From a phage, in the sequence record PZ452610.1: a DNA stretch of 64,000 nucleotides. The stretch is one strand, 5' to 3'. Positions 18,645-26,799 of the stretch are shown piece by piece; position 1 is the stretch's first letter; each line of letters starts with the position of its first letter. The position numbers and the translations under genes were made by a program. A model generated the notes under the pieces. The model worked only from the letters and a program-made list of their open reading frames with translations, searched no databases and was not told the origin of the DNA.

Positions 18645-19007
18645 TTAAAAGAATTTAAATTTTTTCTTGGTTCGTTCATTAAAAGCTTGTTGTACTTGCA
18701 TTGTAACACATTTTTCAACATGTGGTGCAAGTTCTGCTTTTCTGTCCTGGTCAAGAACTGCAAAGTCCATTACGATTTTACCATCAACCCAGTCTAGTTT
18801 TGTAATATAGACTATATGATGAGAACCATCTTCAAGTGTAATCAGAATCTCTTGAATGACATTTTCCATTGCTGAACGGATAATTTTAAGAGATTCATTA
18901 AACACTCGTTCTTTGCGAATGTCTTCCCCTTCCGAAGAAGGGGATTCATCAACGATTTCTAGATTTAAATCATCGAGATTATTCATCGAAATCTTCCATT
19001 TCGTCAA
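18645..19007 (-). CDS. 40: gp40-like head vertex assembly protein
   Basis: 120 aa ORF between uvsX and 41 as in T4; start may be internal Met overlapping uvsX stop. Confidence 0.5.
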   Translation of the reverse strand: MTKWKISMNNLDDLNLEIVDESPSSEGEDIRKERVFNESLKIIRSAMENVIQEILITLEDGSHHIVYITKLDWVDGKIVMDFAVLDQDRKAELAPHVEKCVTMQVQQAFNERTKKKFKFF

Positions 19008-20151
19008 GGTCGTTTTCTATATCTGCTGCAGACGGAGCATCAGAAGTTTTAACCGGAACTTTAGTTGTTGCTTTGCAATTAATAAGGTCGTTAACAGCGT
19101 CATCAACTTCTTTAATAGAAGAGATAGCACCTAGTTTATATTTAGTTTCAATTGCATCTCGGAAAGGTTTGTGTTTAAACAAAGGTCCCCAGAATTCTAC
19201 ACAATCGGTAGCTTTAGCACGCCATGATTTCTCTTCACGAATCATTTCGCCTGTTTCTTCGTCAAGGAATTCGCGAGCATACCACCCGGCTTTAGGCTTA
19301 ACAACAAATCCAATTTCAGTTGCCATTTCTAACAAGCCACTGAATGGGTCAATACCGCCATCAAAATTAACCGTGATCGGGAAAGTAGATTTCTCTTTAA
19401 CTGTACGAGATTTTTCCGCTTTCAACGTAAAGTCATAACCGGTCAATTCTGTACCTTCTTTAACCTGACGTTTAGAGATAAAAAATACCGTGTTGGCAGA
19501 ATAAAGAATACCTGTACCACCGCCCATAATCTCTTTAGGATACAATCCGCCGATTTCCATTGCTGTATGGTTGATTGCAACACATGGAATATCTTTAATA
19601 GTCAGATAAGGAGTCACAATGCGGAACAGAGATTTAAGTGCCTTAGCACGAGACATATCACCTACAACTTTCTCGTTCAATGCATCTTCGGTTTCTTTCT
19701 TAGATGCAGTATTACCAATCGAGTCAATAAAGATAATAACTTTATCACCGCGTTCAATAGCGTCAAGCTGATTAGTCATATCAACTTTAAGTTGTTCGAC
19801 AGATTGAATCGGAGTATGAACTACACGGTCTAAATCAACACCCATTGAACGAAAATAAGATTCCGAAGCACCGAATTCTGAGTCATAAAACAAACAGATT
19901 GCATCTTTATATTTCTTCATATACGCTGCAACCATAGTTAGTCCAAACAACGTTTTAAAGTGTTTAGAAGGAGCAGCAAAAATAGTTAAGCCTGATTGCA
20001 ACCCGGCATTCAGTGCACCACCTAATGCAATATTCAACATCGGAATACGAGTAGGGACTTCATCGCGATTATTAAACAGCTTAGACTTAGTCAAGTCTGC
20101 AGTCATTTTAGAAGTAGAAGCTTTAATCAGACGAGATTTTAAATCAGACAT
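18979..20151 (-). CDS. uvsX: UvsX recombinase (RecA-like)
   Basis: 390 aa; RecA-fold ATPase (Walker A in FAAPSKHFKT region); acidic C-terminal tail; T4 position. Confidence 0.95.
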   Translation of the reverse strand: MSDLKSRLIKASTSKMTADLTKSKLFNNRDEVPTRIPMLNIALGGALNAGLQSGLTIFAAPSKHFKTLFGLTMVAAYMKKYKDAICLFYDSEFGASESYFRSMGVDLDRVVHTPIQSVEQLKVDMTNQLDAIERGDKVIIFIDSIGNTASKKETEDALNEKVVGDMSRAKALKSLFRIVTPYLTIKDIPCVAINHTAMEIGGLYPKEIMGGGTGILYSANTVFFISKRQVKEGTELTGYDFTLKAEKSRTVKEKSTFPITVNFDGGIDPFSGLLEMATEIGFVVKPKAGWYAREFLDEETGEMIREEKSWRAKATDCVEFWGPLFKHKPFRDAIETKYKLGAISSIKEVDDAVNDLINCKATTKVPVKTSDAPSAADIENDLDEMEDFDE

Positions 20152-20249: not shown

Positions 20250-20798
20250 TTAACGAGCCCATTTGATGATTTCTGTAATCAAATCATTACGTTCGCTTGC
20301 ATTAAATCCTATAACTTTGTTAGCACCATCATGATTAAGTAATTGATACGTTTGGATTTTGTTATGAATTGCAAACTCTTCAAAATGTGAAATGACTGTA
20401 TTAAAACCGAATGAAGACAAAGTGATAAGGTCGTCTTCAAAACTTTCAGTCATTTCGTTACGTGTTAAAATAATTGTGAACACATCATGGTTTTGGCAAA
20501 GACGAACATAATCCTGTTCATAAACGTCAAGAACCGAGTCCGCATCTTGTCGAATACGTCCATAAACCCAGTTACTAATATATCCACGGTCTAACAGATA
20601 AATCTTAGTAGGGTCTAAATAATTCAACATCGTTTCGAAACAGCCAACTTCATTTCGAGACTTAACATCGAAACGTCCATCAACTGTTCGTTTAGGGAAA
20701 TCAATCTTTACATATCTTTCACTAATTTCCATTATGTCATTAATGAAAGTTGTTTTACCAGCATTATCCGGGCCATCTACTAAAATAATTTTAGCCAT
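20250..20798 (-). CDS. P-loop nucleotide kinase, thymidylate-kinase-like
   Basis: 182 aa; Walker A GPDNAGKTT and downstream LDRGYISNWVYG resembling the TMK DRY...S motif. Confidence 0.55.
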   Translation of the reverse strand: MAKIILVDGPDNAGKTTFINDIMEISERYVKIDFPKRTVDGRFDVKSRNEVGCFETMLNYLDPTKIYLLDRGYISNWVYGRIRQDADSVLDVYEQDYVRLCQNHDVFTIILTRNEMTESFEDDLITLSSFGFNTVISHFEEFAIHNKIQTYQLLNHDGANKVIGFNASERNDLITEIIKWAR

Positions 20799-20799
20799 T

Positions 20800-21699
20800 T
20801 TATTCCTCGATTACGACATCTTCATATTTAGGTATATTATACGGTGAAGAAATTAAAGCATTAAAGTAGATGAACTCACCAAGACCTGGATGAAATACTT
20901 CTTCAGGATTTTCGAAATATTGAATCTTCGGACGTCCTTTAAGAATTTGATAGTACTCAGTTTTAGTTGGTTTAAAAATTCGAATCAACGCTTCTTCAGG
21001 ATACTTATTTCTGTCGAAGCTATTATTTGGATCGGTTATATAAAGCGGTTGACCTAATTGAATTGCGCATTCAACAACTTGTTCAAAACGATAGCATGGG
21101 TCACTAATTCGAAATGGATGAAAAATACCATCTAGATGAATAGGAGCCAAATCACCTACAAGACGCTGCATGATGGAAGGACGTATAACTTTCTGCGTTA
21201 CGATAATCTTATTACCATCTGCACCTGCGTTAACCAGCACTTCTTTTTGACGTTCATTCAACACAGTAGTTTGAAGTGAACGATTAACCGACAACATATC
21301 AGTTTTTAAGAATTCGTCAATATAAAAACGTGGTTTATTAGGGTCTGCAGTGATATTGAAATTGAATTCCACATCAAAAGCGCCGTCATATCCAGTGATA
21401 TCTGTGATTAAAAAATCACAATCATAATAAGCAATTAATGAATCAACAACAAATTCATTTTCAGACCAGAAATATTTACGAGTGTTATACGCGTTATCTT
21501 TATACCATAATGGAACAAACTTAAATTCTGGAAAAAGACGTTCGCATTCTTTAATATCAGATGCATTACGTGGATATGTAATCACATCACCCGGATTAGC
21601 ACGGTGCAAATGAAGTTGGAAGTTGCCATCCTTAAGGATAGCATACTGTCCAGTTTCATAAGACCGCATACTCAAGATTGGTACGCGGAAAATAGCCAT
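20800..21699 (-). CDS. Hypothetical protein, 299 aa, at the T4 beta-gt position
   Basis: ORF between uvsX and 42 where T4 encodes beta-glucosyltransferase; no similarity to beta-gt recognised. Confidence 0.55.
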   Translation of the reverse strand: MAIFRVPILSMRSYETGQYAILKDGNFQLHLHRANPGDVITYPRNASDIKECERLFPEFKFVPLWYKDNAYNTRKYFWSENEFVVDSLIAYYDCDFLITDITGYDGAFDVEFNFNITADPNKPRFYIDEFLKTDMLSVNRSLQTTVLNERQKEVLVNAGADGNKIIVTQKVIRPSIMQRLVGDLAPIHLDGIFHPFRISDPCYRFEQVVECAIQLGQPLYITDPNNSFDRNKYPEEALIRIFKPTKTEYYQILKGRPKIQYFENPEEVFHPGLGEFIYFNALISSPYNIPKYEDVVIEE

Positions 21700-22415
21700 T
21701 AGTCAAGGAATCCTTTAACATAATCAAAATCACGTTCAAACACATGGGCACTTACCATGGTATGAGTATAATCACCAACTTCTACCCCACATTCGTTAGC
21801 GATATAATGAAGTAATTTTCCTTGGAGATAAAAATCCAACTGCATAACAACAGCACAGTTCTGAGAACGCATATGACAGTGGGTATAAAGCTTACCATCA
21901 CGAATATAATAAGTCACTGAGTCAGTACATGGATATTCAAGCGTTTCGTCCGAATCAAGCAAAGCCTGATCAGAACTTTCTAGAATTTGGAACACAACTC
22001 TTCGAGAGTTAGGCTTCTCTTTAAGTTCTTTTAGAAGAGCTGGTAATTGGGCCGCAATGCGAGGACCATAGAAAGTGTTGAAGTTCGCCGGCAAAACATC
22101 TGATTTTGGTTTAGAAATAAATTTAGCGACATTAGGATATGCCTTAAACGCTTCTTCTGCGTTGGTACCACCAGAAATCATAAACTTCCAGAAGTCTTCG
22201 GCATATTCATAAGAGATGCGGTTAATACGTGGGTCGGTCATTTTGAATGATGATGGAGTGTCAACAACTACTGTCATAGACCCAATTTCATTACAACGTC
22301 CAATACGAGAATCAGTTACGAATTCCGGGTTTTCTAAAATTTCACGATTGACTGCTTTAAATGCGGTTTGAAAATCTGCGGCTTTGATATATTTCATTGT
22401 GTTATGTTTTCCCAT
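21699..22415 (-). CDS. 42: dCMP hydroxymethylase gp42 (thymidylate synthase family)
   Basis: 238 aa; TS-family motifs SRRVVF, active-site PC (EYPCTDS), MRSQN; T4 position. Confidence 0.8.
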   Translation of the reverse strand: MGKHNTMKYIKAADFQTAFKAVNREILENPEFVTDSRIGRCNEIGSMTVVVDTPSSFKMTDPRINRISYEYAEDFWKFMISGGTNAEEAFKAYPNVAKFISKPKSDVLPANFNTFYGPRIAAQLPALLKELKEKPNSRRVVFQILESSDQALLDSDETLEYPCTDSVTYYIRDGKLYTHCHMRSQNCAVVMQLDFYLQGKLLHYIANECGVEVGDYTHTMVSAHVFERDFDYVKGFLD

Positions 22416-22457: not shown

Positions 22458-22697
22458 TTATTTGAATTTCTTGACAATGTTGATATAACGTAAAGCTTCA
22501 GCATCGATACTTCCAAGAACACTATGAAGAAATGCATCAGCGTAGTATTCCAATTGAACAGGTTCTTTAATCACTTTAGCCGCTTTAGTTTCAAACAGGC
22601 CCATCAGGGCCTTTTTAAGAATTTGTTCGTTGCTGTTAATTTTCATAGTCAAAATCTCTTCATTAAGTTGGTGGTTAAAAGTTTTTCTAGAAATCAT
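22458..22697 (-). CDS. Hypothetical protein, 79 aa
   Basis: ORF in operon context. Confidence 0.45.
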   Translation of the reverse strand: MISRKTFNHQLNEEILTMKINSNEQILKKALMGLFETKAAKVIKEPVQLEYYADAFLHSVLGSIDAEALRYINIVKKFK

Positions 22698-23869
22698 TCC
22701 GGGTACCTCAAAGCGTCATCAGAGTTAGTTATATCAATAATAGATATAGAGTTTTCTGCTAACCCGTTTTTAGATAATTGACGTTTATAATATCTTTCAC
22801 AATATGTACACGTCGTCCCGCAGATTTCATTAGCACAATCGAAATCTGGATGTCTGAACCACCTTTTTTCTAAAAAGCCATCTAACAAAGAGGTTTCAAT
22901 ATTTACTGTATGTGAAAACTCAGTTTCGTTTTCAAGAGTGAAAATAGTCTCTAAAGGCTTCCACAGTTCTAACAAATTACCTTCAAACTTTTCAGAAGCG
23001 TATGCTTCAAGAACTTTCAAAATGTAGTCTGTGCTACCTGTACGTCCTGAAACTTTGAATTGAGTGATACCAATATCATTATAAAGTTTCAAATCTTGAG
23101 GACGAACAAAACGAGTTCTCAACCAGTTAAATGGGTCTGTATCACGAGCTTTAATACAGTGCTGCATAGGATATCCGTTTAAGGATTTAGCATCATCAGC
23201 TGTAACATCAGTACTATGGAAAATATAGCAAGAGTCACGATAGCTACAATGTGTTGTATACCCTTTACCAGCATTAGAACAGAACTCATTTACAAGAACT
23301 TCAAATATTATATTGTTCTTATTGCAAAACTCTGCTGCACGCTTCAGGAAAGAAACTGAACGGTTCTTATGAATTCCACAGCAGACCTTTTTGATATTAT
23401 ACTGGTCATGCAAGTATTTGATTTGAGTTACAGCATCGACATGTAGAATTGTTGAAACTTCAATCTCAATGTCTTTATTGACTTCACGAACAATTTCCAT
23501 AACAACAGGGTTAGCGATAGTAATACGCCATACGCCTATTGACCAAAGATACTGAACATAATCCTGAATAGCTTTCTTCTTCCACCCAACTAGTTCTCTT
23601 TTTGAACCAGGATTTATCGTGTTGAGTGTATAGTTAAAGCAAATACCTAATTCGTTACAACGTTTAACGTAATCTTCTAACATCTTTTTGTCAACGTCAG
23701 GAAGCCTAAAATCAGGTCTGGCTGCTACAAAAGCCATTTCTCTTGTAGAGCCGTATACTTCGTTTATCAAGCTATTAGGATAAGTTTTATTGAGCTCTAC
23801 GATTTTATCAAGAAGAGCTAAATCAAAATTCGTTCCAATTTTAAAAGTATTCATTTTTTTGCATCTCAC
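22694..23869 (-). CDS. Hypothetical protein, 391 aa, with C-terminal Cys cluster
   Basis: C-terminal CANEICGTTCTYC (C-x4-C-x3-C-x2-C); family not recognised; sits inside the sugar-nucleotide cassette. Confidence 0.6.
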   Translation of the reverse strand: MRCKKMNTFKIGTNFDLALLDKIVELNKTYPNSLINEVYGSTREMAFVAARPDFRLPDVDKKMLEDYVKRCNELGICFNYTLNTINPGSKRELVGWKKKAIQDYVQYLWSIGVWRITIANPVVMEIVREVNKDIEIEVSTILHVDAVTQIKYLHDQYNIKKVCCGIHKNRSVSFLKRAAEFCNKNNIIFEVLVNEFCSNAGKGYTTHCSYRDSCYIFHSTDVTADDAKSLNGYPMQHCIKARDTDPFNWLRTRFVRPQDLKLYNDIGITQFKVSGRTGSTDYILKVLEAYASEKFEGNLLELWKPLETIFTLENETEFSHTVNIETSLLDGFLEKRWFRHPDFDCANEICGTTCTYCERYYKRQLSKNGLAENSISIIDITNSDDALRYPE

Positions 23870-23910: not shown

Positions 23911-24312
23911 TTATAGATTCGGTTTATATGATTTAAATGTTTCGAATTCGCCTTTATTCATAAGAGCTTTGAATTCGTCAGGACGCATAGCTTTGTCGTC
24001 GATAATCCAATCATATACTGGTTTATGTGTTAGCAAATTATGGTACTTCAAACCAATGTTTTCCAAGTTCTGAATCAGACTTGGGAGAATGTCAATTGCT
24101 ATACGACCAGGACCTACTGACTTCATACCGCGAGCAGTGTAAAGCGTTATGGTATGCCCTGCATCATACAGGGCATTAATAGCAGTCACCATTTCGACGT
24201 CTGGTTTGAAGTTCACGTAATCACGATTGTTATTCCACTCTGTTATACAATCATCGACATCAAAACAAAGATTAAGCATGTTTTCTACACGGTGCATTAG
24301 ATTCGTTCCCAT
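23911..24312 (-). CDS. HAD-superfamily phosphatase-like protein, 133 aa
   Basis: N-terminal FDVDDCIT (HAD motif I-like), TLYTARG (motif II), KPVYDWIIDD (motifs III/IV). Confidence 0.6.
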   Translation of the reverse strand: MGTNLMHRVENMLNLCFDVDDCITEWNNNRDYVNFKPDVEMVTAINALYDAGHTITLYTARGMKSVGPGRIAIDILPSLIQNLENIGLKYHNLLTHKPVYDWIIDDKAMRPDEFKALMNKGEFETFKSYKPNL

Positions 24313-25982
24313 TGATGAGTGATATCGCCACCGATTGGACGATAAGAAACACCAGTTTCTTTATCAGTTAGTACCCATTTACCAGGATTTTTTGTAATCA
24401 GAGTAGCCGTTACAGGTTCTGCTACGTCATAACTAATAGAGCCGTCCTGAAGTACACGGCCCATGTTACGTAATTGCTTAGTCAGAAGTTCCATACCTTT
24501 ATAATATGCGGCTACCGCTTTAAGTGGATTATTCTTGAAATAACCACCTAATGCAATCCAGATAATTGCTACAGCCAAATGATGATACTCGTTAAACGAA
24601 CTCATCTTTCCATATTTGTAAACTAATGGATTGATGTTAATAGTCACATTACAAGTTGTTTCGTCAATAGTAAACTGTCCCCAGGTCGGATTAGCGTTGA
24701 ATTCATCATAACCTGAAACAGCATAAAGCACTTTAGCTTCATCATACAATTTTGGCCCGTAAATCTTGGTTTCGCCAAAATATCCACGAGGGTCGATAAA
24801 CTTGACTTCGCCGTTATCAGTAATCATAGTATTACTGAAGTTCGGGTCACCGTGAATAACAGAGTACTGTCCCTGAGAACGGGTATGATAACGAATAAGA
24901 TGTTCTAAAGCTTGCTTCAGCATTGGCTTCAGACGTCCAATCTTAGTGTAGTTCACGTGTGTGATTTTACCAAATGAATCAATCAATGGCTGAATGCTTT
25001 CACAACGATCAATAACTTTCGTATAGAACTCTTTAGTGAAATCACGGCGAACAGTTTCAGGACTTACAAAATAAGTGTCTGTGCTGAATTTCAGTGCATC
25101 TAAAATTGCATCAACAATTTGTGGACGAGCAAGACTTGATTTGGATTTAATATATTCAAATGCTGGCTTACCTTTAATACGTTCCATTTCAAAATTATTT
25201 TCATTTACCGAAACTAACTGAGGAACTGAATCTGATTTCACTTTCAAATACCATGAAATCTCATCTTTTTGAAGAGCTCGACCTTGTTCGGTTAACGCGA
25301 ATTTAGTTACAGTTTCTTCGCCAATTTCAACTGCATTAAAACTACGATTAAGTTCACGAACTTCATGAGCTTTTTCAAGTTTAGGCATATCACCTAAATC
25401 AATTAGATTCATAAGCTCTGATTTATTGAATGCACTGCCGTAAAGGAATTCTACGAAATCACGTCCTTTGCAGTATTCATGAATTTCCTCATCAGTAGAA
25501 CCCATGTAGAATTCCCAGTCTTTGAACTGATAAATTCCTACAACATTACCGCCTGTTGAACCTACGTTAGTGATATTTTCACCATCGAAATTATATCGAC
25601 ATTCATCACCCTTAACATAGATTGCGTTAACATTCCAAGACCATGAACCAAAATCAGGAATAATATCACACCAGTTAACAATTACGTTATGGCCATCTAA
25701 ATCTTTGTATAATTTAGCAAGAGCATAAGCAGAACCATACGCTTCATCAACTGTACGAATAGTCACATTGAACCCTTCTTGCTCGCAATAAGCTCGAACA
25801 GTTTCAGCAAATTTTGAATGAACTACTACAATAATTTCATCTGCGCCAAGGTCAGAATAAATTGTATACAAATTGCTCAGAATAGTGTCTTGTTTATAGT
25901 TAACAAGAACTTTTGGAATATGATGCGTTATTGGATACAAACGAGTTGCCAGTCCAGCACCAAGAATAACAGCTTTTTTCAT
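24297..25982 (-). CDS. Bifunctional sugar-1-phosphate nucleotidyltransferase / APH-type sugar kinase
   Basis: 561 aa; N-terminus KAVILGAGLATRLYPITHHIPKVLV (NTP-transferase G-x-G-x-R-L); C-terminus HGDPNFSNTMITDNGEVKFIDPRGYFG (APH/ChoK catalytic loop). Confidence 0.75.
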   Translation of the reverse strand: MKKAVILGAGLATRLYPITHHIPKVLVNYKQDTILSNLYTIYSDLGADEIIVVVHSKFAETVRAYCEQEGFNVTIRTVDEAYGSAYALAKLYKDLDGHNVIVNWCDIIPDFGSWSWNVNAIYVKGDECRYNFDGENITNVGSTGGNVVGIYQFKDWEFYMGSTDEEIHEYCKGRDFVEFLYGSAFNKSELMNLIDLGDMPKLEKAHEVRELNRSFNAVEIGEETVTKFALTEQGRALQKDEISWYLKVKSDSVPQLVSVNENNFEMERIKGKPAFEYIKSKSSLARPQIVDAILDALKFSTDTYFVSPETVRRDFTKEFYTKVIDRCESIQPLIDSFGKITHVNYTKIGRLKPMLKQALEHLIRYHTRSQGQYSVIHGDPNFSNTMITDNGEVKFIDPRGYFGETKIYGPKLYDEAKVLYAVSGYDEFNANPTWGQFTIDETTCNVTININPLVYKYGKMSSFNEYHHLAVAIIWIALGGYFKNNPLKAVAAYYKGMELLTKQLRNMGRVLQDGSISYDVAEPVTATLITKNPGKWVLTDKETGVSYRPIGGDITHQWERI

Positions 25983-26023: not shown

Positions 26024-26167
26024 CTAGTTAAAGCATTCATACTTTGCTTGTAGTCCAATCATAATCCATCCAATTACAAGTGTTGGAATCATTACTGGAG
26101 CCGTTAAGCTCCAGTAGATAGTCATGACAAGCATCAATAGTAAAAGTCCTATTGTTATTGCTTTCAT
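26024..26167 (-). CDS. Possible small membrane peptide, 47 aa (not in ORF track)
   Basis: ATG overlaps the TGA of the SIS gene (ATGA coupling); MKAITIGLLLLMLVMTIYW... hydrophobic. Confidence 0.3.
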   Translation of the reverse strand: MKAITIGLLLLMLVMTIYWSLTAPVMIPTLVIGWIMIGLQAKYECFN

Positions 26168-26799
26168 TGTTCGCCTCGTAACATGGCACCTAGTGCACCG
26201 CCTGGATGGAACTTAAGAAAGTCATTAGAGGTAAATCCACGTTCAGACGAAAGGTTGATAGCAAACGTATCGATAAGCGCTAACAACAATGTAGTGGACA
26301 TAGTCGGAGCCAGAGAATTCTCATCAACCTCTACCGCGATGCCTGTACAGAAAGAGTAATCAAAAAGGGCTTCATTTTCTTGCGGAATGTCTGGGTTACA
26401 ATGCAACAGAATCTGTTTGACATTTGGACGAATCATTTTAAGATGCTTAGCCACGCCTATCATTTCTTCAGTCTTACCAGAACGACTAATATGAATCAAC
26501 ACATCATTAGGCGCAATGAATCCTGCATCACCGTGAGAATAATGCCCAGTGTTCAAGTACATACTCGGGATACCGAGTGAAGCAAATGTCTCAGAAGCTT
26601 TAGTTGCAATATTAGCATTCTTACCAACACCTGTAATAATTACTCGGCTTTCATAATTACTAAGTCCAGGGCGTCGAAGAGTTTCTAGAATAGCATTATA
26701 ACGAGCAGGGTTTTGACTAATTACTTTGGCCATAGCGGCCAAAGAAGAAGCTTGTTTTATGATTGCGTCAATAGCGATAGTAATAGGAGTAGTTTTCAT
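26164..26799 (-). CDS. Arabinose-5-phosphate isomerase-like SIS-domain protein (KdsD/GutQ type, no CBS domains)
   Basis: 211 aa; VIITGVGKNANIATKASETFASLGIPS...HGD...HISRSGKT and C-terminal HPGGALG parallel the E. coli KdsD SIS domain. Confidence 0.8.
   Translation of the reverse strand: MKTTPITIAIDAIIKQASSLAAMAKVISQNPARYNAILETLRRPGLSNYESRVIITGVGKNANIATKASETFASLGIPSMYLNTGHYSHGDAGFIAPNDVLIHISRSGKTEEMIGVAKHLKMIRPNVKQILLHCNPDIPQENEALFDYSFCTGIAVEVDENSLAPTMSTTLLLALIDTFAINLSSERGFTSNDFLKFHPGGALGAMLRGEQ

Follow-up and report, generated by a model that had tools for sequence, protein, structure and literature searches.

A putative first arabinosyltransferase for 5-hydroxycytosine in the DNA modification pathway of RB69-like phages

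The modified base of phage RB69 DNA is beta-D-Araf-(1->3)-alpha-D-Araf-O5-dC (Araf, arabinofuranose), which contains no methylene bridge (PMC13326640); the older 'ara-hmC' assignment, based on 5-hydroxymethylcytosine (hmC), is now considered erroneous (PMC13390438). The closest described systems are RB69 gp46:47 and Acinetobacter phage DLP3 gp79, named putative arabinosyltransferase 1 in a 2025 preprint and by Lee et al. (NAR 2026, PMC13326640), and TH1_063 of Shewanella phage Thanatos, flagged as a candidate with a glycosyltransferase (GT) fold in a 2024 preprint that was peer-reviewed in 2025 (PMC12838424). Here, the corresponding gene, termed GT1, is analysed in a window of 64,000 nucleotides from phage sequence record PZ452610.1, where it lies at 20800..21699 on the minus strand. 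Taken together, the data point to GT1 as the conserved 'first' glycosyltransferase in the pathway by which RB69-like phages make arabinosyl-5-hydroxycytosine DNA, a putative assignment with a probability of roughly 0.55. That GT1 is the first arabinosyltransferase is already known as a prediction; there is no substantive difference from RB69 gp46:47 or DLP3 gp79, whose function is likewise predicted, and the gene is intact here.

The comparison with T4 is one of shared position and fold. T4 beta-glucosyltransferase (beta-GT), an inverting GT-B enzyme, occupies the equivalent slot between uvsX and a ThyA-family gene (uvsX-segA-beta-gt-42 in T4) and belongs to the GT-B superfamily, as does GT1. 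The retaining GT-B enzyme T4 alpha-GT (PDB 1y6f) is 100 residues longer than GT1; it transfers from uridine diphosphate (UDP)-glucose to a hydroxymethyl group, whereas GT1 would use UDP-Araf and the ring 5-OH, giving an ether to C5. With a profile of 45 family sequences, hhalign returned a probability of 0.09% (0.1% rounded) against T4 beta-GT and 0.1% against T4 alpha-GT. Membership of either family is therefore rejected, and the first-pass annotation was right to see no recognisable beta-gt similarity. Bacterial retaining GT4-type enzymes (sucrose-phosphate synthase, 6kih; BshA, 6n1x; PimA, 2gej; MshA, 3c4q) are 8-12% identical to GT1, whose C-terminal domain is minimal by comparison.

The gene is an ATG-started open reading frame (ORF) of 299 aa. 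By our arithmetic, the odds of 300 stop-free codons at ~35% GC are ~2e-10, and full-length homologs are present in 349 phage records. The first-pass annotation had placed a 299-aa protein between uvsX and gene '42'. The ORF is there at exactly the expected coordinates, although the slot holds two genes, since a 182-aa TMP-kinase-like gene (20250..20798) accompanies GT1. The order on the shared strand is: the ThyA-like gene (21699..22415); GT1; the 182-aa P-loop gene; and uvsX (18979..20151). At the junction gacTAATGgct, the stop codon of the ThyA-like gene shares 1 nt with the GT1 start codon, and at the junction gaggaaTAAaATGgct the GT1 stop codon is followed by 1 nt and then the start of the TMP-kinase-like gene. 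Given this overlap and 1-nt gap, the three genes are taken to be translationally coupled.

Across this region, E. coli O157 typing phages 3, 6 and 13 match at 100% identity and ~140 further Mosigvirus (RB69-like) genomes at 95-99%; ~150 records in total reach 95% or more. GT1 itself is 99.3% identical to its phage HY126 counterpart, 47.5% to TH1_063 and 45.9% to DLP3 gp79. The 300-aa TH1_063 is an ortholog with the same flanking genes and position. The match to RB69 gp46:47 (99.3% identity over 299 aa) falls in two pieces spanning RB69ORF047c and ORF046c, and the two halves exist as separate BFVD models, each of which superimposes on the GT1 model with a TM of 0.98. Both observations fit the published conclusion that RB69 genes 46 and 47 form one ORF split through sequencing error (PMC13326640). 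In the RB69 record (AY303349.1), genes 46/47 and 52/53 are both split by frameshifts. The orthology to gp46:47 and gp79 supports a first-transferase role because these two proteins are the published putative arabinosyltransferase 1 (PMC13326640). In public records, one GenBank entry labels GT1 'glycosyltransferase', and the gene is called 'putative RNA polymerase binding protein' in LC53 (OP617331.1).

The identity of the acceptor base follows from the gene immediately upstream. The ThyA-family protein encoded at 21699..22415 on the minus strand (Pfam Thymidylat_synt; RB69 gp48 ortholog) is ~98% identical to the solved HY126 enzyme (PDB 9iqc/9ir2). Its sequence RSQN....D stands in place of the RS(A/C)D....N of S. 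aureus and E. coli ThyA, placing Asn at E. coli ThyA position 169 and Asp at 177; the T4 gp42 control has Asp at both. The D169N change is a published predictor of 5-hydroxy-dCMP (5hodCMP) synthases, and RB69 gp48 has been shown experimentally to make 5hodCMP with O2 and flavin (PMC13326640). The neighbour that had been read as '42' is thus not a dCMP hydroxymethylase in function. With this signature, and with alpha-D-Araf-O5-dC in RB69-type DNA, the earlier hmC premise is outdated: the expected acceptor is 5-hydroxycytosine (5hoC).

This association also holds outside RB69-like phages. Across 56 loci with a GT1 homolog, 50 of the 51 linked ThyA homologs carry N169/D177, and the synthase ends within 300 nt upstream of GT1 on the same strand in 43 of the 51 loci with enough flank. 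The same linkage is seen in three contigs: one from a jumbo phage (356 kb), one of 122 kb and one that is marine and T4-like. One GT1-linked ThyA homolog (L060:3312-4004) has Ser at position 169 (RSQS...D) and could represent a variant whose chemistry differs. Flavodoxin_2 genes of the NAD(P)H-dependent FMN reductase type lie beside or near the ThyA-like hydroxylase in two distant phage contigs from metagenomes (L007:1-523 and L008:6739-7293), in keeping with the flavin requirement reported for 5hodCMP synthase.

The likely donor is suggested by the genes that form one operon-like block with GT1, all on the minus strand. A KpsF/KdsD-type arabinose-5-phosphate isomerase of the SIS type is encoded at 26164..26799 (RB69 gp55 ortholog; NCBIfam kpsF, E 2e-32, and KdsD, E 7e-31; also annotated as such in NC_041863) and is the first step of donor synthesis. 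It is joined by a 561-aa bifunctional protein (24297..25982; RB69 gp52:53, HY126 AfhE-like), which combines an N-terminal sugar-1-phosphate nucleotidyltransferase (Pfam NTP_transferase, E 1.3e-9) with a C-terminal APH-like kinase recognised by weak matches. The third member is a 133-aa HAD-type sugar phosphatase (23911..24312, with the start at 24297 in RefSeq; RB69 gp51, HY126 AfhF-like), matching the capsule biosynthesis phosphatase model TIGR01689 of NCBIfam (E 2e-13) and PHROG 1238. These enzymes have been proposed to make UDP-D-arabinofuranose, the HAD step being conversion of Araf-1,5-P2 to Araf-1-P (PMC13326640). HY126 AfhE and AfhF are reported as shown to act in UDP-D-arabinofuranose synthesis, AfhE having UDP-D-arabinose pyrophosphorylase activity (PMC13326640). 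A nucleoside diphosphate (NDP)-pentose donor, as the first-pass annotation had envisaged, is therefore supported by the cluster. The HAD-GT1 fusions described below also count in favour of a link between GT1 and donor synthesis.

Several records of these donor genes differ in labelling or layout. The 561-aa enzyme is mislabelled 'dCMP deaminase' in NRG-P0074 (PQ480333.1) and 'GlmU' in RefSeq (NC_041863.1), and the HAD gene is mislabelled 'phosphoheptose isomerase' in public records. NRG-P0074 has a homing endonuclease between these two genes; none is present at that site in the window. In Thanatos, no KpsF/SIS arabinose-5-phosphate isomerase homolog was detected by tblastn at E<=1, though the rest of the cluster is present; host KdsD/GutQ may serve.

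The fold of GT1 is that of a glycosyltransferase. The predicted model is a high-confidence, compact GT-B structure in which two Rossmann-like beta/alpha/beta domains face each other across a cleft, and it superimposes on known GT-B enzymes. The closest solved structural neighbours are retaining, UDP-sugar-dependent enzymes of the GT4/GT5 type. The structure prediction that had been proposed as a check on the synteny argument thus returned a GT-B glycosyltransferase and not an unrelated fold, and together with the NDP-pentose-making cluster it supports the earlier view of the gene as a candidate sugar transferase.

Sequence searches place the family apart. Pfam and NCBIfam searches of GT1 gave no match, it falls in PHROG 3891 ('unknown function'), and its family profile matched neither PDB sequences nor, by hhalign, the phage's own GT4-type enzyme GT2, described below (0.3%). 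Since all such sequence routes failed, the fold comparison is the sole link between the GT1 family and glycosyltransferases. Two candidate assignments fail at this level: GT1 matches neither the CAZy GT4 / Pfam Glycos_transf_1 family model nor that of the non-hydrolysing UDP-GlcNAc 2-epimerases (Pfam Epimerase_2), and its best structural similarity is not to these epimerases. A single weak Epimerase_2 match in one of 109 diverse members (E 0.065) is taken as noise. A word-indexed search found 138 homologs, zero of them with a precomputed Pfam domain, and an exhaustive hidden Markov model (HMM) scan of 1.84 billion cluster representatives gave just 228 matches at E<=1e-3. The family is apparently small and phage-restricted, and it has no Pfam model. 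For the galactosyl-5hoC Rhizobium phage RL38J1_215, membership was addressed by tblastn with a divergent GT1 member, which listed the same T4-like phages.

Analysis of conservation suggests how such an enzyme would work. In the 109 sequences, which extend down to ~20% identity, residues conserved at 90% or more are R12, Y19, D24, N26, P43, R74 and Q151, together with P195, R197, D200, Y203, N225, H270 and E275. At the level of secondary-structure positions in the model, they lie, in both domains, where strands end (C-termini) or helices begin (N-termini), the places at which Rossmann-type domains bind ligands. The donor and acceptor sites therefore both appear to be under selection. The conserved H270-P-G-x-x-E275 and R197 sit, again at the secondary-structure level, at the place used by GT4 enzymes to bind diphosphate and sugar; the spacing is unlike EX7E, and no EX7E motif was identified.

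The proposed reaction likely involves: binding of UDP-alpha-D-Araf by the C-terminal domain, potentially through the near-invariant R197, D200, Y203, N225, H270 and E275; presentation of the 5-OH of 5-hydroxycytosine by the N-terminal domain, potentially through the near-invariant R12, Y19, D24, N26 and R74; and retaining transfer of the sugar. This would form the alpha-D-Araf-O5 ether that joins the base-proximal sugar to the base in RB69 DNA, making GT1 a putative UDP-D-Araf:5-hydroxycytosine alpha-arabinofuranosyltransferase. An alpha linkage from a presumably alpha-linked UDP-D-Araf donor would mean retention of configuration, in agreement with the structural neighbours. If GT1 acts as T4 alpha- and beta-GT do, the acceptor would be 5hoC in newly replicated DNA, flipped out of the helix. 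A second enzyme, GT2, would then add the beta-(1->3) arabinose, and the modified DNA would be shielded from restriction and CRISPR nucleases.

The placement of GT1 at the first rather than the second sugar draws on GT2, the homolog of RB69 ORF003c. This 366-aa protein (FDG79_gp129; NC_041863.1 147861-148961, or L006:12862-13962) is the one solved as 'phage HY126 glycosyltransferase' (PDB 9iqz/9ir0). With window position equal to 147740 minus record position, as checked on uvsX, its gene starts 121 bp past the window's left edge and is flanked by rIIA and by the topoisomerase large-subunit gene, the latter cut by that edge. A transferase outside the window had been anticipated as possibly the true one; such a gene exists, and it is most likely the second-sugar enzyme. 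The reason lies in Thanatos, which carries one pentose on its base. Thanatos has orthologs of GT1, the kinase, the synthase, the HAD phosphatase, the bifunctional enzyme and the U32-like protein, and no detectable homolog of GT2, T4 alpha-GT or T4 beta-GT (best E 0.11-0.73). As the mono-glycosylated phage has only the 299-aa family, its gene content is independent support for the published view that the base-sugar bond is the work of GT1 (PMC13326640). On this evidence, GT1 is quite probably the first-sugar transferase for 5hoC, putative as that function is; granted this role, action on DNA is moderately favoured over action on a nucleotide.

Several observations weigh against this assignment. 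In the literature covered, which is partial, transferase activity is reported for no family member. DLP3 gp79 alone was inactive on 5hoC-DNA with UDP-Araf or UDP-arabinopyranose (UDP-Arap; data not shown), and its authors cannot tell whether the first arabinosylation occurs at the mononucleotide or the DNA level (PMC13326640). TH1_063 is reported to form UDP-xylose from UTP and xylose-1-phosphate, and did not glycosylate plasmid DNA, dCMP, dCTP or cytosine (PMC12838424). As all these acceptors were without a 5-OH, the transfer negatives say nothing about the real reaction. No member among the 109 matches a Pfam glycosyltransferase model, including Glycos_transf_1, at E<=0.1; because neither a canonical GT4 motif nor a Pfam GT family is found in them, the retaining mechanism is drawn from structural neighbours only. 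Finally, GT1 is acidic (isoelectric point, pI, 5.1; net charge -10), unlike T4 beta-GT at pI 9.05. Net charge was rejected as a weak discriminator between DNA and nucleotide acceptors, since T4 alpha-GT is also mildly acidic (pI 6.1).

The alternative that survives best, although unlikely, keeps the same sugar and base and moves the reaction ahead of replication. GT1 would arabinosylate 5hodCMP, or its di- or triphosphate; the kinase would phosphorylate the product; the polymerase would incorporate Araf-5ho-dCTP; and later sugars would be added on DNA. The partner in this scheme is the TMP-kinase-like P-loop nucleotide kinase at 20250..20798 on the minus strand (RB69 gp45 ortholog; PHROG 761, 'thymidylate kinase', E 1.6e-45), whose family keeps the Walker A motif GxDNxGKxT and a DR motif (41 sequences). 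A gene of this type lies within 300 nt downstream of GT1 in 33 of 53 loci and within 4 kb on either side in 46 of the 53. The pairing persists in a lineage without ThyA, in the order kinase, GT1-like, U32-like. Six cluster representatives (P0230, P0232, P0237, P0243, P0253 and P0257) are natural fusions of GT1 with a C-terminal kinase. Single-sequence phmmer and a kinase HMM linked these C-terminal domains to the window kinase only weakly, so that profile-profile comparison was needed: hhalign against the cluster kinase family gave a probability of 95.6% (E 1.3e-8, 164 columns), with controls below 2%, and the P0232 fusion matches Pfam Thymidylate_kin at E 1.2e-4. Other members carry an N-terminal HAD-like fusion (P0140, P0149, P0151, P0152, P0165, P0167, P0201, P0225 and L057:3452-5107); equivalence of this extension to the 133-aa HAD protein of the window is not claimed, with no homology detectable by hhalign (0.1%).

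The canonical gp1-type deoxynucleoside monophosphate (dNMP) kinase of RB69 converts 5hodCMP to 5hodCDP, which suffices for incorporation into DNA (PMC13326640). This leaves the cluster kinase with no assigned necessity and keeps a nucleotide-level route alive. Such a route would also accommodate the inactivity of DLP3 gp79 on 5hoC-DNA (PMC13326640), the acidity of GT1, which T4 alpha-GT shares, and the near abolition of Thanatos propagation when the sugar-activating enzyme is absent (PMC12838424). Against it, 5hodC itself is incorporated into DNA and later arabinoses are added on DNA (PMC13326640). The kinase may simply be a dedicated 5hodCMP kinase, needed in phages without gp1, and pathway fusions can join non-consecutive steps. 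Also counting against it, all characterised sugar hypermodifications of phage DNA, such as those by T4 alpha- and beta-GT, are to our knowledge post-replicative.

A second alternative, regarded as improbable, is that GT1 is a GT-B protein with another role: transfer of the second arabinose, with GT2 acting first; a non-catalytic glycosyltransferase partner; or modification of the donor in the manner of a UDP-sugar 2-epimerase. The top Foldseek matches of the GT1 model do include non-hydrolysing UDP-GlcNAc 2-epimerases (E 1.7e-6), and glycosyltransferase partnerships exist in these pathways, as DLP3 gp76 and gp77 are active only together (PMC13326640). In addition, the HY126 authors crystallised GT2 rather than GT1, and Thomas et al. 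(2018) proposed ORF003c as an arabinosyltransferase. The gene content of Thanatos described above favours the assignment of GT1 to the first sugar.

The last alternative, that GT1 is no glycosyltransferase and instead a UDP-pentose pyrophosphorylase making the activated sugar, as reported for TH1_063, is very hard to reconcile with a GT-B fold. Its basis is that TH1_063, a true GT1 ortholog at 47.5% identity and the same position, incubated with UTP, xylose-1-phosphate and pyrophosphatase, yielded a product whose mass and tandem mass spectrometry pattern were those of UDP-xylose, as compared with a no-enzyme control (PMC12838424). This nucleotidyl transfer clashes with the fold, which is not that of a nucleotidyltransferase, and duplicates the neighbouring NTP-transferase protein: a genuine PF00483 domain is already present in the 561-aa protein, for whose HY126 homolog AfhE pyrophosphorylase activity is reported (PMC13326640). 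The NTP_transferase (PF00483-type) signature is present in neither GT1 nor 108 relatives (Pfam; NCBIfam for GT1). As the control was a reaction with no enzyme and not a catalytic mutant, a co-purified E. coli uridylyltransferase could be responsible; we speculate that the product could also come from a retaining GT-B enzyme working backwards (UDP + sugar-1-P -> UDP-sugar + Pi). Finally, GT1 tracks the base-hydroxylating enzyme and not the sugar genes, none of which lies nearby in locus L008.

A further gene of the cluster may bear on the origin of the base. The Peptidase_U32-family protein at 22694..23869 on the minus strand (Pfam PF01136, E 7.5e-11; RB69 gp50 ortholog) has conserved Cys clusters and is the most conserved cluster member; its identity is 79% to the Thanatos protein and 80% or higher in every one of the 222 phage records. 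Homologs occur at L004:7462-8598, L058:4954-6051, L059:4947-6029, L062:4885-5973 and L067:3492-4661; in the divergent lineage of L058, L059 and L062 the protein is 47-50% identical, and no ThyA homolog lies within 4 kb on either side. In LC53 and Thanatos the gene after U32 encodes an AroQ chorismate mutase, above the Pfam threshold, and such a gene lies within 4 kb on either side in 15 of 21 U32-bearing loci. RlhA and TrhP are U32-family proteins that carry out O2-independent 5-hydroxylation of pyrimidines. The Fe-S protein RlhA forms ho5C in 23S rRNA, taking the hydroxyl group from prephenate, and TrhP likewise depends on prephenate (PMC13602947).

Acinetobacter phages account for 57 records with GT1, yet Acinetobacter does not feature in the ten leading genera for the U32 gene, which seems to be missing from these phages. 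Acinetobacter is a strict aerobe. Together, these observations suggest that the U32 gene may provide an O2-independent (anaerobic) route to 5hoC; no report of such a U32-based route was found in the literature searched. In the window, the slot of the AroQ gene of LC53 and Thanatos is filled by a 79-aa ORF of a different family (22458..22697, minus strand; PHROG 8601), which shares 4 nt with the U32 gene at the latter's stop. A divergent chorismate mutase was considered for this ORF and rejected on the hhalign probability of 0.2% and on loci in which the two genes are found together (L017, L024-L026).

With arabinosyl-5-hydroxycytosine in their DNA, many T4-like phages, some of which are therapeutic candidates, are protected against DNA-targeting CRISPR systems as well as restriction enzymes and DNA glycosylases. 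In the partial literature covered, the first base-sugar bond is the one pathway step still lacking biochemical proof, and in-vitro reports conflict. GT1 as the candidate, 5hoC rather than hmC as the acceptor and the linkage or fusion to the kinase provide a guide to the choice of substrate: 5hoC-DNA or 5hodCMP, each with or without the kinase. For annotation, nearly all of the 349 phage records still give GT1 as 'hypothetical' or, in error, as 'RNA polymerase binding protein'. If the first arabinose were added to a nucleotide, hypermodified DNA would for the first time be seen to arise through glycosylation at the nucleotide level, with the polymerase building DNA directly from a sugar-bearing dCTP analogue. 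GT1 would, on that nucleotide-level reading, represent a new Pfam-orphan glycosyltransferase family, set by its acceptor, the pyrimidine 5-OH, and not by its sugar.

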